Shown: positions 21,268 through 52,834, counted from the stretch's first letter. The stretch: 64,000 bases of DNA from a virus (IMGVR_UViG_3300045988_123515:15468-79467), one strand, 5' to 3'. Notes: generated by a model not told the origin, from the sequence alone. Numbers and translations are program-made.

Positions 21268-24200
21268 ATGGCTGAAAATACCATTGATACCCTTGAACTA
21301 CAAATTAGTAGTACAGCGGATGCGGCAGTCAAATCCATTAATAATATGTCCAGGGCATTGCAGAGTGTAAACAATACCATTACTGGTTTGAATTCTCATG
21401 GCTTACGTAGCTACGCAAAAGGTATTGGACAAGTTACCGCAGCTATTCAATCCCTTAATTCTGTAAATACCGGAAACATTGCCAAAGCGGTAACACAGCT
21501 TAAAGCACTAAGCAATATAGATTTTAGTAAATTTGAAAATAAGAAACTGAAAATAGATGTTGAGATTTCTGGTGGTGATGCTGCAAAGAAAATGCAGTAT
21601 GCCATTGAAAAATCTCTTGACCAAACCAAAATCGACACATCCAAAATTTCTGCACAGCTGATTAACGCTTTTGACTTAAAAGGTGGTGCTGCTTCCAGAT
21701 TGAGAAAGCAGATGGAAACGCTGGCAGAACAGCTTACAGCTTCTTTTGATGGAAAATCGTCTTTTAATTCTGGCGAATGGGGAAAAACCTTAGACCAGAT
21801 TGGAAATGATATTGTTAAAAGCGGTAAAACTGCAAGAAGTGAGTTGGGTAGTTATTTGGCAGGAGCGGAGCAGGAATGGATTGATTTTTATGATTTCTTC
21901 AAGAATAAGAAAATCTACGTTTCTGATATGCTTAAAAACGATGTCGGAAAGGGTGAATATCAGGATATTTTAAAGAACAATCTTGGTAATATCACAGTAG
22001 ACCCACTTAAAGGAATTAATCTGGATAAATCATGGAGTGAACTTGCTGATAAATTCCCAACCCTGATTTCACAAGACACAATTAATCAGGCAGATCAGCT
22101 TATTACAGTTCTTGAAACTTTAAAAAAAGTAAGAGATCAGATTAAGCCTATCAGCATTCAGGATTTATCCGGGGATGATTTATCATCTGCACAAAGCAAA
22201 GTATTTAGTCAGGTATCCGATACTGCAAGCCAGATAGGTACAAATATTGCCAAAAACATTCAGGATGCAGCAAAAACAGCAGATGGTCAATTTCCAATTG
22301 ATATTAAAATCAATCAAGATAAGATTGTGCATGATATTAAAAGTGCGATCAGTAAAGCATCTTCAATTACTTATGACCCCGTAAAAGTAACCCTTGATGT
22401 CGATACGAAAGAAATTAAGGATTCGATCAGTCAAAAGTTAAACAGCATTGATGCAGGGCAACTTCCACAAGTATCAGATGGACTTGAAAAAATTAAAAAC
22501 GCTTTGCAGTCAATGGCTGGATTGGATTTAAAGAGCACTGGAATCAATTCCACAATCAATGCTTTACAGAGGCTTGCCAGCACTGATTTGACGAATTTTG
22601 ATACTGCTAAGATATCTGGTATTTCTGATGCTTTATCAAAATTTGCAAATATACCCGACATTTCATTAAGCGTAAATCGTTTAGTTTCCTCTTTGGCTAA
22701 ATTATCTGCATCTGGTGGAAGCATCGGAACCGTAACATCTACTCTTCCTGTACTAGGCGATGCAGTCAGTAAGTTTGTGGCTAATGCATCAAATGCCGGA
22801 GCAGTTTCTGGACAATTAAATACATTTATTGCATCGTTGGCCAAATTAGCAACTGCCGGAAATAAGACTGGGCAAACAGCATCTCAGTTAGATTCCTTGT
22901 CGCAAGCAACATTGAATTTCTTCAACGTGATGAAAAATGCGCCTGAAATAAGTGCGAATACATTACGAATGACAGAAGCACTTGCACAACTGGCAAATTC
23001 GGGAAGTAAAGCGAATACAGCTACTAATATGGTTGCAAGCGGATTTAACCGATTATCTAGTGCAGGCAGAGGAATTACCGGTATTGGCAGTAAAATTGCT
23101 TCTGCGGTTTCCGGAGCAAGTAATTCATTGCTTAGTTATGGTAATACTGCGACAGGCACAGCAAAGAAAACAGGTAATCTGGTATCACGGCTTACCAGTC
23201 TTTATATAAAATTTTTTACGCTTAGTCGAATTATAAAATCTGTTTGGAAATCCGTTTCGTCTGCATCTGATTATGTTGAAACACTCAATTACTTCAACAG
23301 TGCTTTTGACCAAGTGACCGATGGCTTGGACACAAGCGGATGGGAAGATGCAGGAGCAAAATCAGCAGAGGAATATGTAGGCTCTTTTGAGAAACGTGCA
23401 AAAGAATTAACAAAAAAGCTCACCGGATTTGAAGTATCCGACGCAGGTGATCTAATGCGTTCTCAAAGCGGTAGCCTTGGCTTAAACCCTAATGATACGA
23501 TGAATTATCAAGCCACATACGCACAGATGGCATCTTCCATGGGAGCCACTGCCGATAATGCCACAAAACTTTCACAGGTATTAACTGAGATTGGTGGTGA
23601 CCTTGCGTCTGTAAAGAATCTTGACTTTAACGATGTATGGCAAGACATGGCATCCGGTATTGTGGGCATGAGCCGGGCATTGGATAAATACGGAATTAAT
23701 ATCCGTGTCGCAAACTTGCAGCAGGAACTTTACAATCTTGGAATTGATACAACTGTAGCAAAATTGAATCAGTCAGACAAGGCTATTTTAAGAACCATTG
23801 TAATCCTCAATAGTTCAAAATACGCCTGGGCGGACTTAGCTGAAACGATAAATCAGCCCGCTAATCAAGTCCGTATGCTCAAATCAAATTTTGAAGCACT
23901 GGCACGCTCAATTGGTACACTATTATTGCCTATTGTTGCAAAAGTGTTGCCATATTTGAACGGAATTACAATTGCAGTAGAACGAGTATTTTCTGGGATT
24001 GCAAGACTTTTAGGAATCAAACTTTCAGACTATGTATCATCCACAAAAAGTGCATCTATAGACATGGATTCCATGGCAGATGCATCTGATAATGCGGCTT
24101 CTGGGCTTGGAAATGCAGACAAAAACGCAAAGAAATTAAAGAAGTCTCTGTCTGTCTTACCATTTGACGAACTGAATCAGCTGAATAGCGATAAAGATTC

Positions 24201-27200
24201 TAGTGGTAGTTCTTCATCTGGTTCCGGTGGTGCAACACCACATATTCCGGCACTTGATGATGCACTTGCCGATGCTATTTCAAACTATCAAAAGGTTTGG
24301 GATGAAGCATTTGGGGGTATGGAGAATAAGGCTCAACAGGTTGCCAATAAAATTACTGATGCTTTTGAAAAAATCAGAAAAGCAGCAAAACCTACAACCA
24401 ATGCAATCAAAAAATTATGGAATGAGGGGCTTAGTAAGCTCGGTAATTTTTCTATTAATGCATTGAAAAATCTTTGGAAAAATTACTTAAAGCCAATGGG
24501 TAACTGGGTGCTTTCTGACAATTCAGGGCTTCCAAGATTCTTTAAAATTACTAACGACATCCTCAATAAAATCAATTGGTCAAAGCTTCAAACTGTTCTG
24601 AAAAATTTCTTTGAAATGCTTCAAAAACCAACGAAATTTGTCTGGACAGGACTTATGGATTTTTATGAAAATTTCTTAAAACCCATTTCTGCTTGGACAA
24701 TGAATGAAGCTATTCCAAGACTTGTTGACGCACTCACACGATTTGGAAACGCTATTCACTGGGATGAACTGAATGCAGCACTTTCAGATTTTTGGAGTGC
24801 GCTGGCACCGTTCGCTCAAAACGTAGGTGAGGGGCTTGTATCATTCTTTGAAAATCTTCTTAAAATAGGAGCGGATTTCATTAATGATAAGGTTCCGAAT
24901 GGCTTAAAATCCATTTCCGAAGCGTTAAAGAATATTGATCCAGAAACAGCCAAACAAATCGGTGTAGGGCTTGTAAAAGTAGCTGTTGCAATCGCAGGAT
25001 TTAAAGGCCTGACGTTTATCGGTAGCATAATTGGAAAAGATAGTCCTTTAGCAAAAGGTTTAGCATTACTATCTGGGCATCCGTATATCGCTATCGCATT
25101 TGGGTTGGCAGGTGTTGTGGCGGCATTGGATAATTTTGGCATCATAGACGTTGATTGGGAGTGGCTTTCCGGAGAAATTGGCAAGGTCAAAGATGCTATT
25201 TCCAATTTTATTGATAAAGTTGATTGGGATGCAATCGGTACATCAATCGGTAAATTTGCAGATGCATTTGCACCGTTTGCAGCAGGTTTTGCAGATAGTT
25301 TAATTGCTGGATTACAAGGGCTTCTTGATTTAGGTGCAGACCTCTTAAATGCAATCGGTAATGCAATTGGATGGCTGGGTGATGCCCTCGGAAAAGTTGA
25401 TCCAGAAATACTTCAAAAGTTAGGAAATGCGCTTGGTGTATTCGTGGAAGTCAAATTGACTTTTGCTATCGTCAGCAAATTAACAGGGTTAGCTGGAGCA
25501 ATTGTGACTTTTGGAAATTCTTTGGGAAACGGAAAAGTTGCTACCAATACTTCCACATTCGCAAAAACATTAACGCTTTTAAAGGGAGCAATTACTGGTT
25601 TGGCAGTTGGCATGGCTTTGACAGAAGAAACAGTGGGCGAAGCAAAGGATGCGGAAGGCTATGGACAGGACATGGAAAAAGGTTTTTCCTATTTGAGTGC
25701 AGCTGTGGAAGACCTTGGAGTAAAAGCAGGTGTTTCTGATGGACAAATGCAGCAATTGAATAGTCAACTTCAAAGTATGAAAGACCAAGGACTTATATAC
25801 GATCCCTCCGCACTCCAAAATTTTGCAGATAAATTATATGATGCAGGAATTAAAGCGGGAGATTTAAAAGATTCTGCTTTGAATACATCAGAAGTAGTTG
25901 ACCAGTTGCGAATTAGCCTTGGAGATTCTGAAAAAGCAGCTAACTTTGTAGGGAAAAATGGATTCACGTATTTATCTGGTGCGTTAAATTTAATGTATCA
26001 AAAAGGTAAAATAAGTCTTGACCAGTACAAACAATTGAATGAGTATCTAAACACAGAAGATGGTGCTAAAACTGCTGCCGAGAAATATAGGACGCTCTCT
26101 GATAAAATTTCAAAAATGGGAATAAATTCAGATGAACTCTACAATAATATGCCAAGTACCATCGAGTCCGCACTCAATCTTGCTCAAACAAGTATTGACA
26201 ATTTTAATGTATCTCCTGTAGTTGAAGGATTGCAATCGCTTACATCTGAGGCACAAAAAGTAGAATTTGCAAATCTTATAACGCAATCATCAAATGCCAT
26301 TGACGGCATGGGCGGCATCTGGAAAAATGGAAAACAAATCCTGGGTACTGATGCACTTGCTATACACAATGCCATTCAGGCCGGACTAGAGCCGGATAAA
26401 GATGGTTATTATGACCTTGGAAACGGTCAGATGGTACAATACGGTAAATCAATCAAGGACAATAAAGAACCAATCAAATCCACATTAGACGATACCTTGA
26501 AGTCAATACTTACAGACAAAGATCTGATGGGAGAGGGCTACAATCTTATGTATGATATATCCGGATATCATATTGACGGATATGTAGAAGGCATGGCAGG
26601 ATTAGGATATAAAGAGGTTAAGAAAGCTTATGAAGCTGCCTTTAACATAGATCAAAATGTTAAAGATAACACCAAAAAAGATGGAGAATCACTCGCTCGA
26701 AATACCGTTGCAGGATATAACGATTATTTGAAAAAGGATGGAGTGACAAATACTTCTCTTGTTACAGAGCAGTGGGCTAAGCAAGGAATCACTGATCCGG
26801 CAGAAAACAAGCTGGAGATTCATTCTCCATCCAAACTTTTTGCCCGATATGCAGAATATGTCGAAAAAGGCTACTCTGATAAAATCAAGAGCCTTGCGAC
26901 AATAACTGCTGCATCCATGAATACTTGGATTTTACAGGGAATCCAGACACCAATAATTAGTAAACTGAGGATTGAAAAAGGTAGTTCCGGTCTGGCAAGT
27001 GATTATGGCACAGCTTTTGGAAAAGGGTTATCTTCTGGTATACTTGAAACCAAAGATAAAAATGAATCCGCTGTCGGCACAGTTCTCTCCGCATTGAAAA
27101 CCAAGCTGAACACCTACAATACCTCATTTGAGAATATTGGTGGAAAGTACATGAGAAAGCTTAATTCAGGAATCAATTCTGAAAAGAATGATCTTGAAAA

Positions 27201-27735
27201 CAATGTAAAAAACATTACAGGAAGCGTTAAAAGTGCATTTGGTTCTATCCAAGATTCAATGTGGTCATATGGCCATAACGCAATCCAGAATTTTGCCAAC
27301 GGTATCCAATCAGTGCATATCAACCTTCCACACCTTAAAATGGATTATACTGATTGGCAGGATGGCGACAACCATAGATGGCGCTGGAACTCTTCTGTAG
27401 ATTGGTATGCTAAAGGCGGTCTGTTTAATGGCGCACAAGTAATTGGTGTTGGTGAAGCCGGACGAGAAGCTGTTCTTCCTCTGGAAAACCGCCGTACCAT
27501 GAACATGATTGCAGATAGCATTGTATCCAGTTCAGACAATACAATGGGATTGACCAAAGAAGAAATGGCACAAGCTGTAGCCCAAGGAGTTGCCATGGCA
27601 ATGATGAACAACTCTGGAAATAACCCGAAATATATCATGAACAGTATAAATGTCAATGGACGAGAGATTATGAAAGCAGTGACCGAAGCTGAAAACGATG
27701 CTAATTATCGTTTGAATCCGTCACCAGCTTATTGA
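21268..27735 (+). CDS. tail tape measure protein
   Basis: 2155 aa, alpha-helical and repetitive, positioned after G/GT. Confidence 0.9.
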   Translation: MAENTIDTLELQISSTADAAVKSINNMSRALQSVNNTITGLNSHGLRSYAKGIGQVTAAIQSLNSVNTGNIAKAVTQLKALSNIDFSKFENKKLKIDVEISGGDAAKKMQYAIEKSLDQTKIDTSKISAQLINAFDLKGGAASRLRKQMETLAEQLTASFDGKSSFNSGEWGKTLDQIGNDIVKSGKTARSELGSYLAGAEQEWIDFYDFFKNKKIYVSDMLKNDVGKGEYQDILKNNLGNITVDPLKGINLDKSWSELADKFPTLISQDTINQADQLITVLETLKKVRDQIKPISIQDLSGDDLSSAQSKVFSQVSDTASQIGTNIAKNIQDAAKTADGQFPIDIKINQDKIVHDIKSAISKASSITYDPVKVTLDVDTKEIKDSISQKLNSIDAGQLPQVSDGLEKIKNALQSMAGLDLKSTGINSTINALQRLASTDLTNFDTAKISGISDALSKFANIPDISLSVNRLVSSLAKLSASGGSIGTVTSTLPVLGDAVSKFVANASNAGAVSGQLNTFIASLAKLATAGNKTGQTASQLDSLSQATLNFFNVMKNAPEISANTLRMTEALAQLANSGSKANTATNMVASGFNRLSSAGRGITGIGSKIASAVSGASNSLLSYGNTATGTAKKTGNLVSRLTSLYIKFFTLSRIIKSVWKSVSSASDYVETLNYFNSAFDQVTDGLDTSGWEDAGAKSAEEYVGSFEKRAKELTKKLTGFEVSDAGDLMRSQSGSLGLNPNDTMNYQATYAQMASSMGATADNATKLSQVLTEIGGDLASVKNLDFNDVWQDMASGIVGMSRALDKYGINIRVANLQQELYNLGIDTTVAKLNQSDKAILRTIVILNSSKYAWADLAETINQPANQVRMLKSNFEALARSIGTLLLPIVAKVLPYLNGITIAVERVFSGIARLLGIKLSDYVSSTKSASIDMDSMADASDNAASGLGNADKNAKKLKKSLSVLPFDELNQLNSDKDSSGSSSSGSGGATPHIPALDDALADAISNYQKVWDEAFGGMENKAQQVANKITDAFEKIRKAAKPTTNAIKKLWNEGLSKLGNFSINALKNLWKNYLKPMGNWVLSDNSGLPRFFKITNDILNKINWSKLQTVLKNFFEMLQKPTKFVWTGLMDFYENFLKPISAWTMNEAIPRLVDALTRFGNAIHWDELNAALSDFWSALAPFAQNVGEGLVSFFENLLKIGADFINDKVPNGLKSISEALKNIDPETAKQIGVGLVKVAVAIAGFKGLTFIGSIIGKDSPLAKGLALLSGHPYIAIAFGLAGVVAALDNFGIIDVDWEWLSGEIGKVKDAISNFIDKVDWDAIGTSIGKFADAFAPFAAGFADSLIAGLQGLLDLGADLLNAIGNAIGWLGDALGKVDPEILQKLGNALGVFVEVKLTFAIVSKLTGLAGAIVTFGNSLGNGKVATNTSTFAKTLTLLKGAITGLAVGMALTEETVGEAKDAEGYGQDMEKGFSYLSAAVEDLGVKAGVSDGQMQQLNSQLQSMKDQGLIYDPSALQNFADKLYDAGIKAGDLKDSALNTSEVVDQLRISLGDSEKAANFVGKNGFTYLSGALNLMYQKGKISLDQYKQLNEYLNTEDGAKTAAEKYRTLSDKISKMGINSDELYNNMPSTIESALNLAQTSIDNFNVSPVVEGLQSLTSEAQKVEFANLITQSSNAIDGMGGIWKNGKQILGTDALAIHNAIQAGLEPDKDGYYDLGNGQMVQYGKSIKDNKEPIKSTLDDTLKSILTDKDLMGEGYNLMYDISGYHIDGYVEGMAGLGYKEVKKAYEAAFNIDQNVKDNTKKDGESLARNTVAGYNDYLKKDGVTNTSLVTEQWAKQGITDPAENKLEIHSPSKLFARYAEYVEKGYSDKIKSLATITAASMNTWILQGIQTPIISKLRIEKGSSGLASDYGTAFGKGLSSGILETKDKNESAVGTVLSALKTKLNTYNTSFENIGGKYMRKLNSGINSEKNDLENNVKNITGSVKSAFGSIQDSMWSYGHNAIQNFANGIQSVHINLPHLKMDYTDWQDGDNHRWRWNSSVDWYAKGGLFNGAQVIGVGEAGREAVLPLENRRTMNMIADSIVSSSDNTMGLTKEEMAQAVAQGVAMAMMNNSGNNPKYIMNSINVNGREIMKAVTEAENDANYRLNPSPAY

Positions 27736-28005: not shown

Positions 28006-29082
28006 ATGAGAAAAGAACAGTCTATTTCCGAAAAAAGAGAACGAGATTTCACGGGTGTTTTTATACCTTCACGATTATATCTTACGAATAAATTCAGCCC
28101 TAGAGAAAAATTTTTATTAGTAGAAATATATAGTCTTCGCAAGAAAGATAAAAATGGAGATTGTTTTGCAAGTAATCGGCATTTCGCGGATTTTATTGGT
28201 GTATCTGAGCGTACTGTCCAGTCAATGCTTAATGGATTAAAAACAGAGGGATATGTAGAAGCATGGTATGAATATGAAAAAGAGAACCCGAAAGTTATTC
28301 ATTGTAGACACCTTGTTTTGACAGAAAAATTTTATGAAGAATTTATTAATGAACATGAGATAAAACAATCTTCTGAACAAGGTGAGAAAAAACACATGGG
28401 GGACGGTGAGGAAAAACGCACCTCCCGTGGTGAGGAAATCTGCATGTATAAGTATAACAAGAGAATAAGTATAACAGAAGAAAAGAATACAGATAAAAAC
28501 TGTATTTTATCAAATACAGAAAAAGAGACTTTACCAAGTGCTGGTAAAGACAATCAGACTTCTGCTCCTAATAATTATAATAAATTAAATATATATAATA
28601 TACCCCCTAGAACAAAGGAGCAGAAAGCCAACCGTTATAATACCAGGAACCAATCATCCCTCTTTGATTATAAAGACGAGGATGTTGAGAATTTGGTAAC
28701 CGAGATATACGAAAGTATTTACGGAGCCAAGGAGAATATTTTTGAAGACCACGACATTTGCCTGTCCATATTTTTGATTACAGAGTTTTTTAAGAAATAT
28801 CAAAAGTACCGTGAAGAGAAACATCCGATGGTTACGCAAAATCAAGCAGAAAATATTCTGAAAATGATTCGTAACCCAGATACAGACATGGCGAAAGATG
28901 ATTTGGTGGACGATAAAGAAGAACCGCTGGTTTATCTTGAAATGATGGAAGAACACTTTAAAACCAAGTGGGGGAAGAAAAATGGTGGTGATTTCAATTA
29001 TCGTATTATGCTGTTTTTTAAGGATACCACGCAGAACCTGTTGTACCAAAGAGTGAAACATAAAAGGGAGGACGCACTATGA
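28006..29082 (+). CDS. winged-HTH DNA-binding protein (DnaD-N/replication-initiator-like N-terminus) with an N/K/E-rich tail
   Basis: FSPREKFLLVEIYSL...FASNRHFADFIGVSERTVQSMLNGLKTEGYVE. Confidence 0.4.
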   Translation: MRKEQSISEKRERDFTGVFIPSRLYLTNKFSPREKFLLVEIYSLRKKDKNGDCFASNRHFADFIGVSERTVQSMLNGLKTEGYVEAWYEYEKENPKVIHCRHLVLTEKFYEEFINEHEIKQSSEQGEKKHMGDGEEKRTSRGEEICMYKYNKRISITEEKNTDKNCILSNTEKETLPSAGKDNQTSAPNNYNKLNIYNIPPRTKEQKANRYNTRNQSSLFDYKDEDVENLVTEIYESIYGAKENIFEDHDICLSIFLITEFFKKYQKYREEKHPMVTQNQAENILKMIRNPDTDMAKDDLVDDKEEPLVYLEMMEEHFKTKWGKKNGGDFNYRIMLFFKDTTQNLLYQRVKHKREDAL

Positions 29083-31039: not shown

Positions 31040-33877
31040 ATGAGAAGTATTTCAAGCGATTTTAAAAATGAGCAAGATTCCGGGAATAGAAATTATCTAA
31101 AGTATGCAGATGTAACACTAATTGATGGAACAGTATTTAATTTCACAAATAAGGAATTATGGCAAAATGGTCTGTCGTTTGAAAGTGATACATCCAATTC
31201 AGGGAGTTTTGACATCGGGTCTGCAATGATAAGTAAGCTTACTTTGCAAATTAACAATTTTGATGGGACGTACTCAAAATATGATTTTAACAACGCTAAA
31301 GTTGTGGCATATGTTGGATTGCAACTCACGGATAGAATAGAAAAAATAAAAATCTGTACAGCCACAGTAACAGATGCACCATATCAGAACAATGTAATCC
31401 TGTCGCTTACGTGCGAAGATAACATGGCAAAATTTGACCGTGATTATTCTGAAAGCAAACTGATATATCCGGCAACCAGATTGCAGATTGTTCAGGATAT
31501 TTGCTCTGTTTGTGGTGTTTCTTTGCAAACAACATCTTTTGCAAATAGTGATTATATCGTTCCTGAACGTCCAGAGGATGAAAACCTTACGTGCAGACAA
31601 GTTTTAGCATGGGTGGCGCAGATTGGATGCCAGTGGGCTAAATGTGATGCAGATGGAAAACTTAATATTGGATGGTACAAAACAGAACCACTTGATTCTG
31701 ACTATATCAGCATTGAGCATACTAATGGCTTTACACCATATTTGGATGATGTTGTAATTACAGGGATCCAGGTTACTGAATACCTGAAATCAAATTCATC
31801 TGAGAAAAAAGCAAAATCATACCTATATGGAAAAACAGGATACGTGCTGAGCATCAGTGATAATAAATTAATTCCAGAGGGCACTGGCGAAACAGTAGCA
31901 TCTATGATTGGCCAGAAATGTATTGGAATGTCTTTTAGACCGTTTACAGCCCAATGCTTGACAGATATATCACTGGAAGAGGGAGATCCGGTAAAAATCA
32001 TATCCAGAGATGGAACAGAATACAAAAGTTATCTTACATCTGTTAGATTACAGCCTGGTACATTTGAGGACATATCTTGTGAAGCCAAAAGTCCGGCAAG
32101 GAACAGCCGAAAGCAATACTCGTTACTATCACAAGCAATGGTAGAAGCTAGGCAATCCGTACACCAGGAAAAGACAGCAAGAGAACTAGCAATTGAACAG
32201 CTTGGACAAAAAATAGAAGAATCATCTGGTGTGTATACAACTGTTGTAAAACCAGAAACAGGCGGTAATATCTATTATTTGCACAATAGACCCAAACTAG
32301 AAGATTCTGATATGGTGTGGAAAATGACCGCAGAAGCATGGGGAGTGTCTACTTCTAAAGATTCAGACGGTAATTTTATCTGGAATGCCGGAATGACAGT
32401 GGATGGAGATACCATTGTTCGTATTTTGACTGCAACCGGAGTAAATGCAGACTGGATTAACGCAGGTGAAATCCTTGTGAAGGACAATAACGGTAATACT
32501 ATTTTCTCTGTCAATATGGACACAAAATCCGTATATATTGATGGTTCTTCCGTGACTATCGGTGGGAAGCCTCTTGAGCAGACGTTATCCGAACTTAACA
32601 GCAAAATTTCTGACAGTTTGCCAATAGCAATGTCTTTAACCTGTGATTTTAAAGGGATTACAGTAGATGCAGATGGAAATTATGAAACATTTCCAGACGG
32701 GATTTCAACTTCCCCAATAGTGGTTTTAGGGGCACAGGATATTACAGCAAATTGTGCTTATACAATCACAAAATCAGATTCAATTACTGGAACATGGAAC
32801 AATGCTACAAGAACATACACGGTTACTGGATTGACTGCTGATGATGGATGGGTGGATATCAGGGCAACATATCTGACCAATATTATTATCACAAAACGTT
32901 TTTCGGTATCTAAGGTGTACAGTGGGCAGAGCGGCGTAACATACGGATTAATGACTTCAAGCCCAATTATCAAAAAAACGTCACAATCAGAACTAACACC
33001 AACATATGTTGATTTTACGGCATATTACACAATTGGAAAAGACATGACAAAATATTTTCTCAATGGCCGGTTTGTTATTGAAGAAGTATTGAATGATGAT
33101 GGTGTATGGAGAACGGTATACACCAGTACACAGGATGAATCAGAAGTGCGCCGGTCGCTGTATACGGTTCTGACTACCAAGGATGGAAAAGTCCCTGTAA
33201 CAAAAGACGGAAAATATGCGCTTGGATATTCCCGGAATGTTACCTCTATCAGATGCAGGTTCTATGCAGCAGGCGGTACAACTCAGCTTCTGGGAGAACA
33301 GACATGTGCTGTTGTAGCAGATGCAACCGCTCAGCTGTCACAGTCAGATATCGTTGAGATATTAAGTGATGGCGGTAGGTGGAACGGACTGTATTACATT
33401 GATGGCAAGTTGTATATTTCATTCAGTGCGATGCTTGGTGGGGCACTTACACTTGGTGGAGCTAATAACGGAAACGGTCTGTTAAGACTATTAGATGAAA
33501 ATGGAGATACAATAGCTACATTGGATTCTTCAGGTGCAAGTTTTACAGGACAATTCGTAAATAGAAAAGGCAAAGAATGGATAAAAATTCTGGATTCTAT
33601 CATAACATCAGGATATGACGAATATGTAGATGGTCGTATTGATCTATCAGCACAGTATGGGGATGGGACAAGAAAAGTAGTTTTGGAATCTCTGACAAGT
33701 GATCTTGTGCTGAAAAGCGCAAGTGGGAAAATTCTCACAGGCGATGGAAGGGCTCTGATTGGAACAGATGTTTCAGGAGTGTATATATCAGAAATAAGCT
33801 ATATGGATGATGTTGAAACAGGAGAAAGAAGCATAATTTTTACATTTAGTGATGGAACAGTAAAAACTCTTGCATAA
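31040..33877 (+). CDS. tail-associated (Tal / prophage tail endopeptidase-like) baseplate protein
   Basis: 945 aa, assigned by position after the Dit-like gene. Confidence 0.6.
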   Translation: MRSISSDFKNEQDSGNRNYLKYADVTLIDGTVFNFTNKELWQNGLSFESDTSNSGSFDIGSAMISKLTLQINNFDGTYSKYDFNNAKVVAYVGLQLTDRIEKIKICTATVTDAPYQNNVILSLTCEDNMAKFDRDYSESKLIYPATRLQIVQDICSVCGVSLQTTSFANSDYIVPERPEDENLTCRQVLAWVAQIGCQWAKCDADGKLNIGWYKTEPLDSDYISIEHTNGFTPYLDDVVITGIQVTEYLKSNSSEKKAKSYLYGKTGYVLSISDNKLIPEGTGETVASMIGQKCIGMSFRPFTAQCLTDISLEEGDPVKIISRDGTEYKSYLTSVRLQPGTFEDISCEAKSPARNSRKQYSLLSQAMVEARQSVHQEKTARELAIEQLGQKIEESSGVYTTVVKPETGGNIYYLHNRPKLEDSDMVWKMTAEAWGVSTSKDSDGNFIWNAGMTVDGDTIVRILTATGVNADWINAGEILVKDNNGNTIFSVNMDTKSVYIDGSSVTIGGKPLEQTLSELNSKISDSLPIAMSLTCDFKGITVDADGNYETFPDGISTSPIVVLGAQDITANCAYTITKSDSITGTWNNATRTYTVTGLTADDGWVDIRATYLTNIIITKRFSVSKVYSGQSGVTYGLMTSSPIIKKTSQSELTPTYVDFTAYYTIGKDMTKYFLNGRFVIEEVLNDDGVWRTVYTSTQDESEVRRSLYTVLTTKDGKVPVTKDGKYALGYSRNVTSIRCRFYAAGGTTQLLGEQTCAVVADATAQLSQSDIVEILSDGGRWNGLYYIDGKLYISFSAMLGGALTLGGANNGNGLLRLLDENGDTIATLDSSGASFTGQFVNRKGKEWIKILDSIITSGYDEYVDGRIDLSAQYGDGTRKVVLESLTSDLVLKSASGKILTGDGRALIGTDVSGVYISEISYMDDVETGERSIIFTFSDGTVKTLA

Positions 33878-43515: not shown

Positions 43516-44131
43516 GAACAAAATAGTAATTTCAGGTGTTGCATCAAGCGTAGCCTTTCATCATGAAGCATTCGGTATTTATTATTATCAAACATCTGTT
43601 GCAGTAACAAGAAGAAGTGGGAATATTGATTACCTTGACGTAGTTGCAAGTGATGAAACTTTCGGGGCTTATGATTACGAGGGAAAAAAAGTTGTGGTGC
43701 ATGGTGCAATTCGCTCAAGGATTGAGAAGAAACAGGCGAGAGAAGCATATGTTGCAGCGGACAATATAGAAATATTGGATGCCCCTGTTGCAGGCGGAGA
43801 TTTAAACAAGGTTGAGGTAGAGGGATTCATTTGTAACAAAAACATTGAGGGAAAATATACGCCGGTAACAAGAAGATATATTCTCAATCTGTTCTTGGCA
43901 ATTCACAGAAATAATAAGAGGAACGGAAGAGCAGATTATATTCCCTGCTGCATTTGGGGGGAAAACGCAAAAGAAATTGAGAAACAAGTTGAGCAAGGCT
44001 CAAAAATTAAAATAACAGGAATGCTCCTTTCCAGGGAGTTATACAAAAATGGCGAATTTGTAAGTGTATCTGAGATTTCAGTAAATTCAGTGGAGGTATT
44101 GGATGAAAACAATAGAGTTAAAAAGAATTGA
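43508..44131 (+). CDS. tandem OB-fold, SSB-like protein
   Basis: Two SSB-like halves, for example ADYIPCCIWGENAKEI...GSKIKITGMLLSRE. Confidence 0.45.
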   Translation: MGENKIVISGVASSVAFHHEAFGIYYYQTSVAVTRRSGNIDYLDVVASDETFGAYDYEGKKVVVHGAIRSRIEKKQAREAYVAADNIEILDAPVAGGDLNKVEVEGFICNKNIEGKYTPVTRRYILNLFLAIHRNNKRNGRADYIPCCIWGENAKEIEKQVEQGSKIKITGMLLSRELYKNGEFVSVSEISVNSVEVLDENNRVKKN

Positions 44132-46079
44132 GCTTGAGAACTATAAAAAGTATTCCAGCAAAACAGTTGAGTTATATAAAAAGACCAAGATTTCAGGACG
44201 CAATAAAGCAGGAAAATCCACGCTGATGGATGCGTATTTTGATACGCTAACAGGAAAATTAGCTGATGGTACATTGCCAAATGAAGTAAGAAAAAAAGAC
44301 AATGGAGTTGAAGTTGATAATCCAGTAGTCCGTGAGATTACGCTTTCTGTTGACGGTCAGGAAATGGTTATTCGAAAAGAAATCAAAAAAGGCAAGAACA
44401 ATAACACAACTTCCTATGAAATTGATGGTTTCAAAAGCAATAAAACGAAGTTTGAAGAGTTTTTAAAAGAGAATATTGCTGATCCGGATACGCTTCTGAT
44501 GTGTAGTAATGCCCGGGCATTTATCAATGAAATCTCAAAATCTACAGCTGATGCAAGAAAGACTTTATCAGATATTTCTGGATTTGATGAAAAGCAGATT
44601 GAAGGCTATGCAGATATTCAGAATATCACAAAAGGGCATCCGGTTGAGGAAGTTTTGAGGACATTGAGGGGTAATTTACGGAAGCAGGATAAAGCCGTTT
44701 CTAATAAGAAAGCAGTTATTAATAATGCAGAGGAAGAACTTTCAAAGATAAGTTCAGAATCTGTTGCAGATAAAGAATCCTTGCTGAAAGATAAAGCAAT
44801 TATTGATGAAAAAGAAGCTAAAATCGCCGATTTATCAAAAGCCTATGAAACAGCCCAGGGTGAAATCGAAAGTCTTAAAAAAGCAAGAAATGATTTTGAA
44901 AGAGCATCCGGTGAACAGCTTGGAAAGAAACATTCTGAAATTTTAAACATCGTTTCTGATAGAAAAATCAAGTTACAGGCTGACCAGAACGATTTAAGAA
45001 CTGCCAGAACAATCTTGTCCAACATGGAATCAGATGATGATTTAAAAAATAACGTTACAGATTTACAGGCACAGTATAAAGCAGTTTTTTCATCTGCATG
45101 GAATGATTCTGCATTAAAAGCTATCGAAGTAGAAGAATTTAATGAAGCAGAAGCCGTATGCCCGACTTGTGGACAGAAGTTGCTCCCAGAACAGGTTGAA
45201 AAATTAAAGGTAACATTTGAAGAAAACAAGCAGAAGAGAATCACTGAACAGTTTGAAGCAAAAGCTAAATTCGAACAGGACAAGAAACTCACTCTTGAAG
45301 AAATTACCAAAAGAGGAAATGAAGCCGTTAAACACAGAAAACAATGTTCAGAAGATCGCACAAAGCTGGAATCTGATATTTTAGAGATTGAGAAGCGTAT
45401 TGCAACTCTGACGGAAGAAATTCAGGCAAAAGAGAATGAATTGGAAGAAATTCCTACAAAAGTTGATTTATCTGCAAATGCTGAGTATCAGCAGATTCTG
45501 GCAGATATACAGAAGAAAGAAACTGAGCTTGCTGGGCTGAATAATTATTTTAAAGAGAGACAGGAAATCGCAAATAAGAAACTGGAACTTGCTAAAAAGA
45601 TTGCGGAAATCGAAACCACGGAGAAACTTATAAAAAAGCAGAAAGCAGACAAGCAGCAGTCAATTGCCAGTATGAAAGAAGAATTAAAAACATTAGGGCA
45701 GCAGTCAGCTGATATTCAAGGACAGATTGACAAGGTGATGAATTTTTCAATTCTGAAAAACAAGTTACTTGCCGAAAAGATTAATCCTTATTTCAAGCAT
45801 TTCCAGTTTAAATTCCTGGATTACACATCGGATAATGAACCGATTGAAACTTGCCGGATGATCTGCAATGGCATTGATTATATGAATGGCTTGAACCACT
45901 CTGATCAGATTTTGTGCAACATTGATTTAGTGGCAGGATTGCAGGAATTGAACGGATTAAAACTTCCAATTTGGGTTGATGATGTGGAATCCGTGAACGA
46001 AGAAAGATTGCCGGAATTAGAACAGCAGGTTATTTACTTGGAAGTATCAAAAGAAGAATTAAAAGTGGAGGAATTTTAA
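44103..46079 (+). CDS. Rad50/SbcC-like AAA ATPase with a CxxC zinc hook
   Basis: Walker A GRNKAGKST and a long coiled coil containing CPTCGQ. The C-terminus LPIWVDDVES is Walker B-like. Confidence 0.7.
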   Translation: MKTIELKRIELENYKKYSSKTVELYKKTKISGRNKAGKSTLMDAYFDTLTGKLADGTLPNEVRKKDNGVEVDNPVVREITLSVDGQEMVIRKEIKKGKNNNTTSYEIDGFKSNKTKFEEFLKENIADPDTLLMCSNARAFINEISKSTADARKTLSDISGFDEKQIEGYADIQNITKGHPVEEVLRTLRGNLRKQDKAVSNKKAVINNAEEELSKISSESVADKESLLKDKAIIDEKEAKIADLSKAYETAQGEIESLKKARNDFERASGEQLGKKHSEILNIVSDRKIKLQADQNDLRTARTILSNMESDDDLKNNVTDLQAQYKAVFSSAWNDSALKAIEVEEFNEAEAVCPTCGQKLLPEQVEKLKVTFEENKQKRITEQFEAKAKFEQDKKLTLEEITKRGNEAVKHRKQCSEDRTKLESDILEIEKRIATLTEEIQAKENELEEIPTKVDLSANAEYQQILADIQKKETELAGLNNYFKERQEIANKKLELAKKIAEIETTEKLIKKQKADKQQSIASMKEELKTLGQQSADIQGQIDKVMNFSILKNKLLAEKINPYFKHFQFKFLDYTSDNEPIETCRMICNGIDYMNGLNHSDQILCNIDLVAGLQELNGLKLPIWVDDVESVNEERLPELEQQVIYLEVSKEELKVEEF

Positions 46080-47738: not shown

Positions 47739-48842
47739 ATGGCGGAAAACACACAGGTAGCAAATTTTAACACACAGCTTTCCTACTACACAAATCGTTA
47801 TGTCGATTTAATGGAAAGAGATTTAACTTCAAGAGGAATGGAATTTGATTCTTACTCAAAAGATTGTGTAGTGGCAGCAATGGGATCTATTTTCCAGATG
47901 GTGCATGAGAGCGGCGTCAATTTTGACACAATCAACGGTTCTAATCTTAAATTTATTCTGAGCAAGGTAGCAGCATTGAAATTGAACGCAAACGCACAGC
48001 CAAGAGAATGCTATTTCCAGATTAGAAACGTAAATGTAGCAGCGAAAGGGCAGAAACCTCAGTGGGAAAAGAAAATTGAGTTTGCGATTGAAGGCGACGG
48101 AAACGATGCTCTTGTAAGTAGATATGGTGTCAATGTAGCTAAAGTATTTCCATATTGGAAAGTCAGAGAGGGTGATAAGTATATCCCACCGAGACATAAA
48201 GGTGTGGAGATTACACCGCCGGAATGGGAAGAATCTGGAATTGGAAAAGTAGTTCGCGTCGTATATCCAATTCAGTACAAAGATGGTCACGTTGAATACC
48301 TTTCTTGTGAAAGAGCAGATGTATTAAAAAATCTTGCAGCACATATCAAGAATAATCTTCAGAACGAAACATTTGGTATTTGTGCGGACAGATACAAAGC
48401 TACAGATGCACAGAAAGCTCAGATTGAAGCAAAGAAAAAAGAAGTTATGAAAAAGGTTGCTGATATTGGGGAACTGGAAGCAATCATTGATTGCGAGGAG
48501 TTAAGACCGTATATTTCACCGTCTTATTATGAAACACAATCCAGAGAATCTATGATTATCCGCAAAATGCGTAACAACATCATGAAGTCTATTCCTAAGA
48601 AATGGGATAATCCGGTGCAAGCTTATGAATATAACACGATGGACGCTACATACAGAGAAGTACAGGAAGAAATCGAGCAGAACGCTAACACCGAAGAATT
48701 TATTCCAGAGCCAATGGCAATCGAAGAACAGCCGAAACAGCCGACAGTTGCAGAAGTCGTTAAGAAAGCCGAGAAAGGACCAGTTCCAGCAGCAGTTGTC
48801 GAGCCAGAGATTCCGGATTTTATGAAGCAGGAGGAAATGTGA
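47739..48842 (+). CDS. RecT/Red-beta-like single-strand annealing protein
   Basis: QPRECYFQIRN...IEFAIEGDGNDALVSRYG...VREGDKY follows the RecT core pattern. Confidence 0.55.
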   Translation: MAENTQVANFNTQLSYYTNRYVDLMERDLTSRGMEFDSYSKDCVVAAMGSIFQMVHESGVNFDTINGSNLKFILSKVAALKLNANAQPRECYFQIRNVNVAAKGQKPQWEKKIEFAIEGDGNDALVSRYGVNVAKVFPYWKVREGDKYIPPRHKGVEITPPEWEESGIGKVVRVVYPIQYKDGHVEYLSCERADVLKNLAAHIKNNLQNETFGICADRYKATDAQKAQIEAKKKEVMKKVADIGELEAIIDCEELRPYISPSYYETQSRESMIIRKMRNNIMKSIPKKWDNPVQAYEYNTMDATYREVQEEIEQNANTEEFIPEPMAIEEQPKQPTVAEVVKKAEKGPVPAAVVEPEIPDFMKQEEM

Positions 48843-48843
48843 T

Positions 48844-49449
48844 ATGAACAATAAAGAAATTTTACAGAAAGCAAAGGAACTCGTTGAACTGTTGGAAAAA
48901 CAGGAAGAAGCTGGCAAGGTTGCACTGTCAACATTGAATCCTGGTGATGTGTTCCAAACCACCGGAAAACGCAAATACAAGGTTCTGGAACAGTATGGAG
49001 ATACAACGAAAATTATTTCGCTTGATCTGGTGAAAGAAAATGTGAGATTCGGAGACAACACGGATTACAACAAATCAAATGTAAAGAAATTGTGTGATAC
49101 AGAAATCTTAAAGGATTTTGAGAAAGAATTTGGTGCTGAAAGCATCGAAGAGCATACGGTAGATATTATTACCGCGGATGGACAGAAAGTAGGAAACACT
49201 GAATGTAAAATCCGTCCGATTACATTTGATGAAGCACGAGAATACACAGATATTACACCGAATAAGAAGTTGAACGACTGGTATTGGACACTATCACCGT
49301 GGTCAACGGAAGAACGTGGATGGAAGAACTGTTTAGCCGTTGTTTCCCCTTCGGGCGATTTCTTCAGGCTCAGTTACGTCATTGTAAACGGTGTTCGCCC
49401 AGTTTGTATCTTAAAATCTAATATCTTTGTATCTAAGGTGGAGGAATGA
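48844..49449 (+). CDS. DGR target protein 1 (C-terminal variable ligand-binding fold, DUF6273/CLec-like)
   Basis: WYWTLSPWS...AVVSPSGDFFRLSYVIVNGVRPVCIL. No signal peptide. Confidence 0.8.
   Translation: MNNKEILQKAKELVELLEKQEEAGKVALSTLNPGDVFQTTGKRKYKVLEQYGDTTKIISLDLVKENVRFGDNTDYNKSNVKKLCDTEILKDFEKEFGAESIEEHTVDIITADGQKVGNTECKIRPITFDEAREYTDITPNKKLNDWYWTLSPWSTEERGWKNCLAVVSPSGDFFRLSYVIVNGVRPVCILKSNIFVSKVEE
49337..49401 (+). repeat. VR1
   Basis: Versus TR it has 11 substitutions at TR adenines plus 1 at a T. Confidence 0.9.
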
Positions 49450-49451
49450 AA

Positions 49452-50051
49452 ATGAAGAAAAATCTGAAATATTTTGAAGATGAATTATCCAGATTAAGTA
49501 AAGAGTTTACGGAATTCAAGAAAAAGCACATCGGAAAGCCGGAAATCGGAAAAGCTATTGAACTTGCAGGTATGGAATGGCTGATTCTGGATAAGACAGA
49601 AAAAGGATATTTTGCCATTTTGAATGGATTTGATGGAAAAGAAAGAACATTTGATTCAGATTCAAATAACTGGATTTCGAGTAAACTGAGAAATGAGTTA
49701 AATACTCGTTTTCTTAAAAAAATTACGGACGAGTTGGGAGAAGATGCAGTTGTTGAGTTTGATCGTGATTTGCTTTCTTTGGACGGGCAGACAGAATATG
49801 GACATTGTAAAGATAAGATTTCGTTTTTGACGGTGGATGAATACCGGAAATACAGAAAACTTCTTCCAAATATGAGCGAATGGTGGTGGCTTATTACTCC
49901 ATGGAGTACACCAGCAAATAATTACAGTACAATAATTGCCGTTGTTTCCCCTTCGGGCATTATCTACGGGAGCGGTTACTACGGTGGGGACGGTGTTCGC
50001 CCAGTTTGTATCTTTTCTTCTTCAATCTTTGAATCAGGAAGTGATGATTGA
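49452..50051 (+). CDS. DGR target protein 2 (paralogue)
   Basis: WWWLITPWS...AVVSPSGIIYGSGYYGGDGVRPVCIF. The start was chosen 7 nt after GGAGG. Confidence 0.8.
   Translation: MKKNLKYFEDELSRLSKEFTEFKKKHIGKPEIGKAIELAGMEWLILDKTEKGYFAILNGFDGKERTFDSDSNNWISSKLRNELNTRFLKKITDELGEDAVVEFDRDLLSLDGQTEYGHCKDKISFLTVDEYRKYRKLLPNMSEWWWLITPWSTPANNYSTIIAVVSPSGIIYGSGYYGGDGVRPVCIFSSSIFESGSDD
49939..50003 (+). repeat. VR2
   Basis: Versus TR it has 12 substitutions at TR adenines plus the same T-to-G change. Confidence 0.9.
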
Positions 50052-50422
50052 TGGCGAATGAAGATTTAAAGGTAATAACAAAGGCCAAGCAACTTGCAAA
50101 GCATACATTAATAGTTACGAGTAATGCCAGACGCTACCCAAAGAAATACAGGTTTTCACTGGTAGATAAAATGCAGAACAAAGCTCTTGAAATATATGAG
50201 ATGCTTTTTGAAGCCAACAGAACCGACTTGAAAGATTATAAAAGAGAGCGCTTGGAACTCCAAACAAGAGCAATTACTCACTGCGATGAACTGATGTATT
50301 TTATAGAACTTTCATATGAATTAGGAATTATCAATTCTGGCGGAATGGAAGCCTGGTCGCAAATGGTTAAGGACATAAAGTACATGACTATTTCGTGGAG
50401 GACTAAAGACAGGAACAGATAA
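50051..50422 (+). CDS. avd: accessory variability determinant (Avd-like four-helix bundle)
   Basis: 123-aa basic helical protein between the targets and the TR. Sequence ITKAKQLAKHTLIVTSNARRYPKKYRFSLVDKMQ. Confidence 0.7.
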   Translation: MANEDLKVITKAKQLAKHTLIVTSNARRYPKKYRFSLVDKMQNKALEIYEMLFEANRTDLKDYKRERLELQTRAITHCDELMYFIELSYELGIINSGGMEAWSQMVKDIKYMTISWRTKDRNR

Positions 50423-50447
50423 TTTTACAGGTTGTGCACTGCGAATA

Positions 50448-50512
50448 CCGTTGTTTCCCCTTCGGGCAATATCAACAGTAACAATTACAACAATGAAAAC
50501 GGTGTTCGCCCA
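50448..50512 (+). repeat. DGR template repeat (TR)
   Basis: The core reads AAT ATC AAC AGT AAC AAT TAC AAC AAT GAA AAC, with 19 adenines in 33 nt. It is non-coding, and ORF 50432..50746 across it is spurious. Confidence 0.9.
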
Positions 50513-50571
50513 ACATGGATCACATGCAGACAGAGTAAGCATAAAGCTGAAATCAGTAAAGATACAAGCAA

Positions 50572-51636
50572 ATGCATAACCTTTCCGCAATGGATAAATA
50601 TAAAGGAACAAAGCAGATGGATAAAGAAATTGTTGCAAATTTTGAGAATTTATATTGTTCTTACAAAAAGGTTAAGAGCGGTAAGAAATTCAATTCAGGA
50701 ACTGCAAGGTTTTCTAATTTGTCTCTTGAAGGTATTCATCTTCTGAAGGAACAATTGGAAAGCCAAACGTATACCATAAATCCGTATAATAAATTTCAGA
50801 TTCATGAGCCGAAAGAACGAACGATAGAATCATGCGCATTTAAGGACAAAGTAGTGCAGAGATGCTTTTCTGATTACATTCTGACACCAAAACTTGAAAA
50901 TATCCTGATTAAATGGAACACTGCCGGACAGCAAGGAAAAGGACACCACATGGCAATGGACGGGCTAAGAAATCAGATGTTGGATTTCTACAAAATGAAT
51001 GGGTTGAATGGCTGGATTGTAAAATGTGACATTCATAAATATTTTTACAGCATAGATCATGAAATCACGAAAGATGTTTTGGATTATTACTTTAATGATG
51101 ATTTTACAGTCTGGTTGAACCATTTGTTTATTGACAGCACAGATAATCCAGGATTGCCATTAGGAAATCAAGTAAATCAGAAATACGCATTGTTACTGCT
51201 TCATTCGTTAGATCAAATGATAACGATTGAATTTGGAAATCCATATTACGGACGATACAACGATGATTTTTACACAGTGTGTAAAACGAAAGAAGATGCC
51301 AGAGAAATCCTTGAAGCAATCCGAATGATGGTCGAAAGCCTTGGACTGGAATTAAACCCAAAGTCGCAAATCGTACCATTTCGCATGGGCTTGTGTTATC
51401 TGGGCTTTCACCATTACGTGACTGATGAAGGAAAATATATCAGAAAATTGCGGGGTGATAAGAAAAGAAAAACTCAGAAAAAGGTTCGTAGATGGGTTCG
51501 TGCATTAAATGAAGAAAAGATGCCGATAGAAAAATTCAATGAAAAATATGAAGCATGCAAGAATCATATGCTTCATGGAAACTGTATCAAATTATGCCAT
51601 AGTATGGATTTGGAAATTGAAAGGAGAACGAAATGA
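50572..51636 (+). CDS. DGR reverse transcriptase
   Basis: HEPKERTIESCAFKDKVVQ, LPLGNQVNQ (DGR-type GxxxSQ-like) and YGRYNDDFY (YxDD box). The start is uncertain, with alternatives at 50590 and 50617. Confidence 0.85.
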   Translation: MHNLSAMDKYKGTKQMDKEIVANFENLYCSYKKVKSGKKFNSGTARFSNLSLEGIHLLKEQLESQTYTINPYNKFQIHEPKERTIESCAFKDKVVQRCFSDYILTPKLENILIKWNTAGQQGKGHHMAMDGLRNQMLDFYKMNGLNGWIVKCDIHKYFYSIDHEITKDVLDYYFNDDFTVWLNHLFIDSTDNPGLPLGNQVNQKYALLLLHSLDQMITIEFGNPYYGRYNDDFYTVCKTKEDAREILEAIRMMVESLGLELNPKSQIVPFRMGLCYLGFHHYVTDEGKYIRKLRGDKKRKTQKKVRRWVRALNEEKMPIEKFNEKYEACKNHMLHGNCIKLCHSMDLEIERRTK

Positions 51637-52066: not shown

Positions 52067-52834
52067 TTGTTCATGCGAGTAATTTCAACAGGAAGTACCA
52101 AAGGAAATTGTTACGCTTTGCAGTCAAGTACAGGCGAGATTGTTCTTCTTGACTGCGGATGCAATTACAAAAAAATTCTTAGAGGGATTGATTACCAGAT
52201 AAGCAATGTTGAAGCTGTACTTCTTTCGCATGGGCACGGAGATCATACCGAAGCATTCAAGGAAATAATGGATGCAGGCATTCAGATTTACACCAATGAT
52301 GAAACAATGGAACATTTAAAAATCATCACAGGTGAATTGATGAAAAGTGTTCTGGAAAGATATCCATTTAGAGTCGGTTCGTTTAACGTGATTCCATTTG
52401 AATTGCCGCATACGACATATGATAAGGAAGCAAATCAGCTTATCCCTTGCTCGAACTATGGATATCTGGTGGAGCATAAGGAAATGGGGAAACTTCTGTA
52501 TATGACTGATTTCGAGTATTGCATATATAGTTTCCGCAAGATGAAAATTGAACATCTGGTAATCGAATGCAATTACTGCGAAGAATTGGTGGACAAGGCA
52601 GAAGCTAATTACAGTCATAGATTAAAGGGGCATTGCTCTTTATCAACTTGTAAGCAATTCATTAAGCAAAACCGCACAGAATCACTTCGGACGGTAACAC
52701 TGGTGCATTTGAGCGGTCAAGCGTCAGATGCCCATAAAATACAGCAAGAAATACAAGAAGTCGTAGGAAACAATGTTCTGGTTCAGATCGGACGGGCTGG
52801 ACTGGAAGTTGATTTGAATTTATGCCCGTTCTGA
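52067..52834 (+). CDS. metallo-beta-lactamase-fold hydrolase
   Basis: The LLSHGHGDH motif. Confidence 0.75.
   Translation: MFMRVISTGSTKGNCYALQSSTGEIVLLDCGCNYKKILRGIDYQISNVEAVLLSHGHGDHTEAFKEIMDAGIQIYTNDETMEHLKIITGELMKSVLERYPFRVGSFNVIPFELPHTTYDKEANQLIPCSNYGYLVEHKEMGKLLYMTDFEYCIYSFRKMKIEHLVIECNYCEELVDKAEANYSHRLKGHCSLSTCKQFIKQNRTESLRTVTLVHLSGQASDAHKIQQEIQEVVGNNVLVQIGRAGLEVDLNLCPF

Follow-up and report, generated by a model that had tools for sequence, protein, structure and literature searches.

A diversity-generating retroelement with two small tandem targets among the recombination genes of a gut phage lineage

Phage diversity-generating retroelements (DGRs) are almost always read as tail-fibre host-range switches, and large surveys take unannotated viral targets as structural. 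What, then, does a DGR diversify when its sole detectable targets lie in a recombination and replication operon? We address this question for a 64,000-nt stretch of viral DNA (IMGVR_UViG_3300045988_123515:15468-79467), hereafter the window, with all positions counted from its first letter. Downstream of a gene for a RecT-like single-strand annealing protein, the window carries two adjacent target genes (T1 and T2) ending in variable repeats (VR1 and VR2), an Avd gene, a template repeat (TR) and a reverse transcriptase (RT) gene. The best explanation of the whole, to which we give a probability of roughly 55%, is a recently active, canonical DGR whose targets are most likely non-virion binding proteins made early in infection.

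The repeats themselves show the signature of adenine-specific mutagenesis. TR and both VRs are 65 nt long and share an identical, adenine-free 20-nt 5′ flank (CCGTTGTTTCCCCTTCGGGC) and an identical 12-nt 3′ flank (GGTGTTCGCCCA); the 33-nt TR core between the flanks holds 19 of the 20 adenines in the repeat. VR1 differs from TR at 12 positions, 11 of them TR adenines, and VR2 at 13, 12 of them TR adenines. The chance of at least 23 of these 25 mismatches hitting 20 adenines among 65 positions is P = 2.5e-10. A preliminary description of this DNA, made from the sequence alone, had placed and counted these repeats, flanks and core differences exactly as we found them on re-comparison, and had noted the adenine bias with its one exception, a T>G difference at TR position 32 (window 50479) common to both VRs. 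At the codon containing this position, the window's TR is unique among 24 TR variants in relatives, the others reading AAC or AGC; the likeliest explanation is a TR point mutation later than the last homing events.

The boundary of the repeats differs between VR and TR. Directly 3′ of the common GGTGTTCGCCCA, both VRs, as well as the VRs of all relatives, read GTTTGTATCT and TR reads ACATGGATCA. This pattern, a shared 12-nt G/C-rich block followed by VR/TR divergence, fits the difference between an initiation of mutagenic homing (IMH) element and its TR counterpart (IMH*), and such a VR/TR-specific boundary is what would be expected for directional homing. The flank patterns occur only at these three sites in the window (0 expected by chance), so that no third VR is detectable there. 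Each VR ends 48 nt before the stop codon of its target gene, and the 11 codons of the TR core allow 5.5e10 peptide variants per target, with no stop codon creatable. The DNA downstream of VR1 folds no better than shuffled sequence (-0.4 kcal/mol), with no convincing hairpin, and the fold downstream of VR2 is weak (z = -1.6).

We looked for the polymorphism at adenine positions that the preliminary description had proposed as a check, using relatives in IMG/VR. A scan with the RT returned 80 loci with a full-length RT, 89-93% identical, and 70 of these have the layout VR1-VR2-avd-TR-RT; the remainder mostly reflect contig ends upstream of the cassette or a repeat missed by the pattern search. 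VR1 was found in 71 genomes, VR2 in 77 and TR in 78, and 140 TR-VR pairs could be compared without gaps. Across these pairs, 1450 of 1569 mismatches fall at TR adenines: 52% of TR adenines are substituted, versus 1.0% of C, 2.3% of G and 2.8% of T, with A>G (796) and A>T (574) far exceeding A>C (80). Nearly every VR is unique, with 67 distinct sequences among 71 for VR1 and 73 among 77 for VR2, and TR is A-rich in 76 of 78 relatives. In the protein alignment, variation is restricted to the 11-residue block. By dN/dS outside the VRs (T1 0.12, T2 0.25, Avd 0.03, RT 0.07), the targets, Avd and RT are all under purifying selection. Together, the adenine-specific VR diversity and this selection argue comparatively that a functional element diversifies both targets in the lineage, and we regard the cassette as almost certainly an active DGR. 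The original DGR call, comprising TR, two VRs, an IMH-type difference, Avd and RT, is thus fully supported, and the relatives add evidence of activity to it. Outside IMG/VR, a megablast search of the cassette against 50,697 GenBank phages gave no match, and scans of GTDB species genomes with the RT and with the target alignment found no relatives.

Some relatives depart from the common layout. In a 179-kb contig labelled 'uncultured Ruminococcus sp.' (L081:10600-11216), and also in L082, avd is cut to 44 codons and TR and RT are replaced by a 160-aa open reading frame (ORF). Both targets are intact in L081, a close relative of the window. This looks like a recent loss of the DGR that left frozen VRs, and the targets would thus persist after DGR loss. 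The 160-aa ORF was suspected to be an HNH homing endonuclease; Pfam gave nothing at E <= 1e-3, and this assignment remains a guess.

Two TRs are themselves unusual. In one relative the adenines of the TR locus are substituted adenine-specifically (L080:7876-7941; AAC>GGC, AAT>GAT and others), and in another the TR core is identical to the VR2 core of the same genome (L064:7449-7514). These cases, 2 of 78, look like natural TR self-mutagenesis or VR-to-TR conversion. A third locus (L009:547-2290) reads VR2, avd, a chimera of the TR 5′ flank and core with the VR1 3′ flank, and then VR2, avd and TR, which is either a tandem duplication via TR/VR1 recombination or an assembly artefact. Separately, the median dS of T2 against relatives is 0.18, far below the 0.5-0.8 of neighbouring genes, which suggests that T2 was recently exchanged or homogenised.

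Avd and RT are both recognizable. Avd matches phrog_3206 ('Avd protein of DGR', 1.3e-24) and stays below the cut-offs of curated Avd models (NCBIfam DivGenRetAVD, 40.5 bits vs 80; Pfam bAvd, 19 vs 40); a Pfam 23S_rRNA_IVP match is likewise below cut-off. The RT matches Pfam RVT_1 (43 bits vs a cut-off of 29.6) and phrog_1423 (8.6e-84), and its translation reads LGNQVNQ and YNDD, with the catalytic motif intact. Against NCBIfam models, none of them specific to the DGR clade of RTs, it gave only sub-threshold group II, Drt and retron matches.

An alignment of 13 TR-RT spacers and the gene calls of relatives point to likely starts at a conserved ATG (50617) for RT, and at ATG codons at 49452 for T2 and 50053 for Avd; database homologues of T2 begin MKKNLKYF. 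The RT start therefore leaves a non-coding spacer of ~104 nt after TR. At 50521-50625 we found a match to Rfam RT-2 (RF03077) of 26.4 bits, below the gathering score of 40, and the same sub-threshold match recurs in an unrelated locus, L089 (28.5 bits vs 40). The spacer alignment shows strong conservation and six pairs with compensatory changes, including a hairpin directly after TR. In its location, with TR on one side and RT on the other, and in its conserved 5′ hairpin, the spacer fits an RT-2 RNA; with a score below threshold it may be called RT-2-like only. The features of the cassette are collected in Table 1.

Table 1. Coordinates of the DGR cassette and the adjoining RecT gene in the window
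Feature	Position	Strand	Remarks
RecT-like single-strand annealing protein	47739..48842	+	phrog_2185 RecT-like, 1.1e-118
Target 1 (T1), 201 aa, N-terminal helix and DUF6273-like domain	48844..49449	+	phrog_9958, 8.9e-23
VR1	49337..49401	+	variable core 49357-49389, 11 codons, DFFRLSYVIVN
VR1 3′ boundary element (IMH-like)	49390..49411	+	shared GGTGTTCGCCCA, then VR-specific GTTTGTATCT
Target 2 (T2), 199 aa	49452..50051	+	phrog_9958, 8.3e-50; ORF listing from ATG 49446
VR2	49939..50003	+	variable core 49959-49991, IIYGSGYYGGD
VR2 3′ boundary element (IMH-like)	49992..50013	+	same element as after VR1
Avd accessory protein	50053..50422	+	phrog_3206; ORF listing from TTG 50048
TR	50448..50512	+	core 50468-50500: AAT ATC AAC AGT AAC AAT TAC AAC AAT GAA AAC
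Non-coding TR-RT spacer of DGR RNA	50513..50616	+	hairpin starts directly 3′ of TR
DGR reverse transcriptase	50617..51636	+	Pfam RVT_1, phrog_1423; longest ORF from 50572

We next consider what the targets are. T1 and T2 are 36% identical to each other, and both strongly match phrog_9958, a family of unknown function. The preliminary description had proposed ends of DUF6273 or C-lectin type. The first part holds for T2, which matches Pfam DUF6273 (PF19789) at 29.6 bits, above the cut-off of 23.5; T1 falls just under it at 23.0 bits. The T2 family is large: a library search gave 1293 clusters (50% identity), with lengths mainly of 180-230 aa, and the protein has >4000 database clusters at 90% identity. 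PADLOC and NCBIfam gave no match for either target.

AlphaFold2 reached a predicted local distance difference test score (pLDDT) of 40 for T2 from a shallow alignment of close homologues, and 89.9 (predicted template modelling score 0.82) from a diverse alignment built by profile search. In the latter model, a helix (residues 2-27) is followed by a single globular alpha/beta domain, and there is no beta-prism or beta-sandwich domain of the kind used for Mtd-type tail attachment. Foldseek returned one significant match in the PDB, to an IgA peptidase of Thomasclavelia ramosa in its N-terminal DUF6273 domain (9qa6; E 3.8e-7, TM 0.62). Searched by sequence profile, the PDB yielded 9qa6 only weakly (E 0.058). 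Classical C-type lectins scored below significance (E 0.4-2.7), leaving the lectin part of the earlier claim without a significant match, and Mtd and TvpA are absent from the listed matches. In BFVD, the T2 model matches many phage DUF6273 proteins (E 1e-8 to 1e-4), some small and others fused to annotated receptor-binding or tail-fibre modules. We also note a conserved cysteine pair in T2 (C121/C188), considered as a possible disulfide marker of an extracellular role, and four family representatives of 355-411 aa (P0122, P0138, P0149 and P0177) that match T2 in two separate stretches; the tandem pair thus apparently also exists as a predicted fused two-domain protein.

The genomic setting of the targets sets them apart from the tail. 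The source phage is probably a temperate gut Clostridia siphovirus of ~75-80 kb. By PHROG annotation, the window opens with terminase, portal and major head protein genes, a 2155-aa ORF (21268-27735) that we take, from size and position only, to be the tape measure protein, and tail genes up to 33877. Integrase, endolysin and anti-repressor genes follow, then those for a single-stranded DNA-binding protein (SSB), an SbcC-like ATPase and RecT. Beyond the DGR cassette lie a metallo-beta-lactamase (MBL)-fold hydrolase, a second SSB and methyltransferases, including a C5-methyltransferase. The distance of ~15 kb to the baseplate genes given in the preliminary description agrees with a tail protein gene at 31040-33877. 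The gaps between the RecT, T1, T2 and Avd genes are 1-2 nt, with the RecT stop 1 nt before the T1 start. Because the target genes overlap or abut RecT, each other and Avd, they probably belong to one early recombination/replication transcription unit.

Several neighbours deserve mention in their own right. The MBL-fold hydrolase (52067-52834), 3′ of the cassette, has sub-threshold similarity to the anti-Pycsar protein Apyc1 (17 bits vs a cut-off of 50), and its homologues accompany RecT/SSB in L081, L082 and L089. The SbcC-like AAA ATPase upstream of RecT (44103-46079), which is SMC-like, matches the PADLOC model of Lamassu LmuB at 49 bits. Between the putative tape measure ORF and the tail genes, an ORF at 28006-29082 has weak PHROG matches to replication initiation/DnaD-like proteins (2e-13), an odd location for such a gene.

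The placement beside recombination genes, already remarked in the preliminary description, extends well beyond the window. In ~77 relatives the block has the same location, between RecT and the MBL hydrolase/SSB genes. Relatives without the window's type of RecT have another RecT family in the same slot (phrog_148; Pfam RecT, 131 bits), sometimes with a 133-aa Cys-rich gene between it and the block. The two families, phrog_2185 in the window and phrog_148 (L003:5308-6270), alternate in otherwise collinear genomes and end in a common C-terminal tail (…EEFIPEPMAIEEQPKQ…PEIPDFMKQEEM), suggesting that the annealing core was swapped and the tail kept.

To sample unrelated phages, we took distant small DUF6273 proteins, picked solely for their location on long contigs. 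In L084, a tandem pair of 205 and 205 aa lies amid an AAA ATPase, RecT, methylases and SSB; the pair is intact and ends in VR-like, adenine-depleted sequence, and there is no RT within 10 kb of it. In L086, a small HK97-type prophage, the early region closes with SSB, a tandem pair, Avd, TR and RT, and the variation of both VRs is adenine-specific. L088 has a single target with Avd, TR and RT, ahead of an AAA_24 protein and, later, DnaB. The order in L089 is SSB, AAA ATPase, Tad4, tandem pair, Avd, TR and RT, directly followed by RecT, MBL hydrolase and SSB, and its TR has no non-adenine mismatch to VR1 and one to VR2. The context is ambiguous in L083, L085 and L087, which represent one element type.

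Published phages behave similarly. Toutatis gp24 and Lelie orf58 lie amid methyltransferases, a regulator, a replication initiator and the antiterminator Q, and downstream of nd4 tgt2 come an RNase_T exonuclease, SSB and DnaC. In FP_Brigit, gp06 (L093:3948-4559, 203 aa) is among the first genes of the rightward early operon, with two regulator genes ahead of it and two exonuclease genes and RecT just downstream. Compared over 50 nt with the Brigit TR, 41 kb away (L094:33700-34050), it has seven adenine mismatches and no non-adenine mismatch, which identifies it as a second DGR target at a distance; Brigit was originally described with the Hoc-like target only. Overall, the small DUF6273 gene lies in an early, replication or recombination region in eight of nine independent lineages sampled, including all four cultured or published phages, and in the structural module in none of the nine. 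At least seven of those lineages have, or once had, this gene as a DGR target. In Toutatis, nd4 and Brigit the small target is early though the RT is elsewhere, which argues that the location is the target's own rather than the cassette's.

These observations are best explained by the canonical DGR scheme. TR and the structured spacer would be transcribed, and a complex of RT and Avd would copy TR into cDNA, misincorporating at template adenines. In each of the two tandem paralogous genes, the cDNA would take the place of the 65-bp VR, which lies at the 3′ end, with direction set by the VR-specific sequence 3′ of the shared GGTGTTCGCCCA. Each round would re-randomise 11 codons, giving ~5e10 peptides with stop codons impossible, and the diversified codons would lie in one patch close to the C-terminal end of the protein, which has a single DUF6273 (C-lectin-like) domain and a 27-residue N-terminal helix.

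What would such proteins do? We favour early-expressed, soluble, non-virion binding proteins over tail-fibre receptor-binding proteins, a judgement we put at about even odds, and if so they would most likely act inside the infected or lysogenic cell, in phage-host conflict. Four observations lead to this view: the early context is consistent across lineages; the small target's location is independent of the RT in Toutatis, nd4 and Brigit; the T2 model has no virion-attachment domain; and targets are retained after DGR loss. The intracellular, non-receptor role suggested in the preliminary description gains from the recurrent early context and is plausible as a proposal.

Other points weigh against such a role. 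To our knowledge, all experimentally characterised phage DGR targets are displayed on the virion, and early regions make up about half of a temperate phage's genes, so that context alone is a weak guide. Scans for sigma-70 promoters and terminators did no better than on shuffled sequence, and it is gene spacing that suggests the co-transcription of T1 and T2 with RecT. The only pointer to the host is the single NCBI contig labelled 'uncultured Ruminococcus sp.'. The N-terminal helix could be a virion docking or oligomerisation module. Elsewhere, DUF6273 is fused to Ig-like, receptor-binding or tail-fibre modules (BFVD; PMC10743442), the domain is extracellular in the IgA peptidase (PMC12402451), and authors describing small DUF6273 targets assumed Mtd-like receptor binding (PMC10743442; bioRxiv 10.1101/2024.10.15.618418).

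The main alternative is that the targets are accessory receptor-binding or adhesion proteins of the virion, Mtd-like in function, whose N-terminal helix docks them to the tail or head. The early location would then be an accident of where the cassette inserted, and the DGR would serve host-range or mucus-adherence switching. A virion role is the default for phage DGRs (Roux et al.), published work interprets small DUF6273 targets as receptor-binding, and the domain occurs in annotated receptor-binding or tail-collar fibre proteins as well as in the large immunoglobulin (Ig)-bearing targets called tentaclins. The N-terminal helices also show heptad-like hydrophobic spacing, as judged by eye only. 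Set against this are the absence of the small gene from the structural module in all nine sampled lineages, its early position in Toutatis, nd4 and Brigit though their RTs are elsewhere, a T2 model without beta-prism or beta-sandwich attachment domains, and the lack of a significant Foldseek match to Mtd or TvpA. We consider a virion role somewhat unlikely, and less probable than a non-virion one.

The placement may instead reflect mechanism rather than target function, an idea compatible with either view of the targets. Mutagenised cDNA would enter the VR by phage single-strand annealing, through RecT or a Sak4-like protein, at replication forks. No integration mechanism is established for natural DGRs, and synthetic DGR systems, which integrate cDNA in this way with CspRecT, need RecT (bioRxiv 10.1101/2025.03.24.644984, 10.64898/2026.07.21.739853). 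In our data, RecT lies directly upstream of the cassette and its gene keeps this slot despite the family swap; RecT in L089 and the AAA_24 protein in L088 lie directly 3′ of RT; and the TR changes in L080 (adenine-specific) and L064 (TR equal to the VR2 core) match the erosion seen in RecT-driven systems. However, the RT cassettes of Toutatis, Brigit and nd4 are not beside an annealing protein, and adjacency within an early module is fairly often expected by chance. We also know of no annealing-protein neighbour for the prototype DGR of phage BPP-1, which counts against such a coupling. On balance we find it improbable as the explanation of the placement.

A last alternative, in which gene conversion homogenised three remnants of paralogous coding sequence and the RT is part of something else, gains only from T1 and T2 being paralogues that should have some sequence in common, and we dismiss it with near certainty because the mismatches, in the window as in the relatives, are adenine-specific, TR is non-coding, lies between avd and RT and has only the 65-bp block in common with the targets, and Avd is present in a canonical arrangement.

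Returning to non-virion binders, a more specific and bolder version can be stated. The targets might be a repertoire of intracellular binders that the DGR diversifies and that neutralise variable host nucleases or defence proteins; they would be co-expressed with the recombination genes, from a location like that of Gam in the lambda Red operon. Gut Firmicutes phages would then have in them a widespread, antibody-like arm of counter-defence, to which some DGRs are wholly dedicated. We offer this tentatively and think it rather unlikely in this full form. As an observation on the setting, a gene for the anti-Thoeris protein Tad4 (L089:6206-6556) shares an early module with tandem targets and a DGR, so known counter-defence genes do occur in this neighbourhood.

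The preliminary description had called the targets unusual, and they have more precedent than this implies: two-target DGRs and small single-domain DUF6273 targets are already known in gut Firmicutes phages (PMC10743442, PMC11792537, bioRxiv 10.1101/2024.10.15.618418), and a non-structural phage target has been proposed too. Our literature searches, in an incomplete library, found neither a systematic early-module location stated for small DUF6273 targets nor a DGR presented as dedicated to them. The DGR mechanism here is ordinary; the context of the targets is under-appreciated and a modest surprise, and it lends itself to experiment. In an abundant gut phage lineage, the sole detectable DGR targets lie in a recombination/replication operon, and if these are indeed non-virion proteins, part of the very common DGR activity of the human gut virome serves an uncharacterised intracellular purpose. 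Should they turn out to belong to the virion, the element would be just one more DGR. A direct test is possible, since homologous small targets occur in Brigit, Toutatis and Lelie, which are Faecalibacterium phages with cultured hosts.

Comparison with known systems places the cassette close to the prototype in mechanism and apart from it in its targets. As in the BPP-1 DGR (mtd-avd-TR-brt), the order is target(s), avd, TR, spacer and RT, with the VR at the 3′ end of the target; adenine-specific mutagenesis, AAY-rich TR codons, a G/C-rich boundary followed by a VR/TR-specific element, and Avd, which BPP-1 requires, are also common to both. In contrast to BPP-1, there are two tandem targets rather than one, and these are ~200-aa single-domain DUF6273 proteins without the beta-prism and beta-sandwich domains of Mtd. 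The cassette sits in a RecT/SSB module rather than beside tail genes, the 65-bp repeat is short, and no convincing hairpin follows VR1. A hairpin/cruciform downstream of the VR, present in BPP-1, is not universal among DGRs.

The closest known targets are nd4/nd12 tgt2 (PMC10743442), the small targets of Lelie/CP11 (PMC11792537) and FP_Toutatis gp24 (bioRxiv 10.1101/2024.10.15.618418), which belong to the same domain family (tblastn 29-32% identity; Pfam DUF6273). They are likewise made up of one globular domain and a short helix, with the VR at the domain's C-terminal end, and one TR serves two targets. The early/replication location of the small targets of nd4, Toutatis and Lelie, found in this analysis, is a further likeness. 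In the nd4/nd12, Lelie/CP11 and Toutatis phages, however, the small target lies far from the RT, and its partner is a tentaclin, large, multi-domain and Ig-bearing, near the tail or accessory region. The window instead has two small targets in tandem, directly upstream of avd, and no detectable structural target. The position of the helix differs as well, being C-terminal in the proteins of the Faecalibacterium phages and N-terminal here.

Two further systems bear on the function and the mechanism considered above. The DGR of Quimbyvirus ('Quimbyviridae') similarly has a hypervariable C-lectin-type target outside the structural module, near methyltransferases and nucleases, and this target, nested among defence-related genes, has been proposed to act in phage-host conflict (Benler et al. 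2021, PMC8008677). Quimbyvirus differs in its Bacteroides host, in its frameshifted RT and in its two targets, of which one is structural and the other non-structural and on the opposite strand. Synthetic RecT-assisted DGRs (DGRec and others) combine RT, Avd and TR with a RecT-family protein and show TR adenine erosion, which has a natural counterpart in L080. These systems were engineered in E. coli, whereas for the natural cassette it is the adjacency of RecT that we see.

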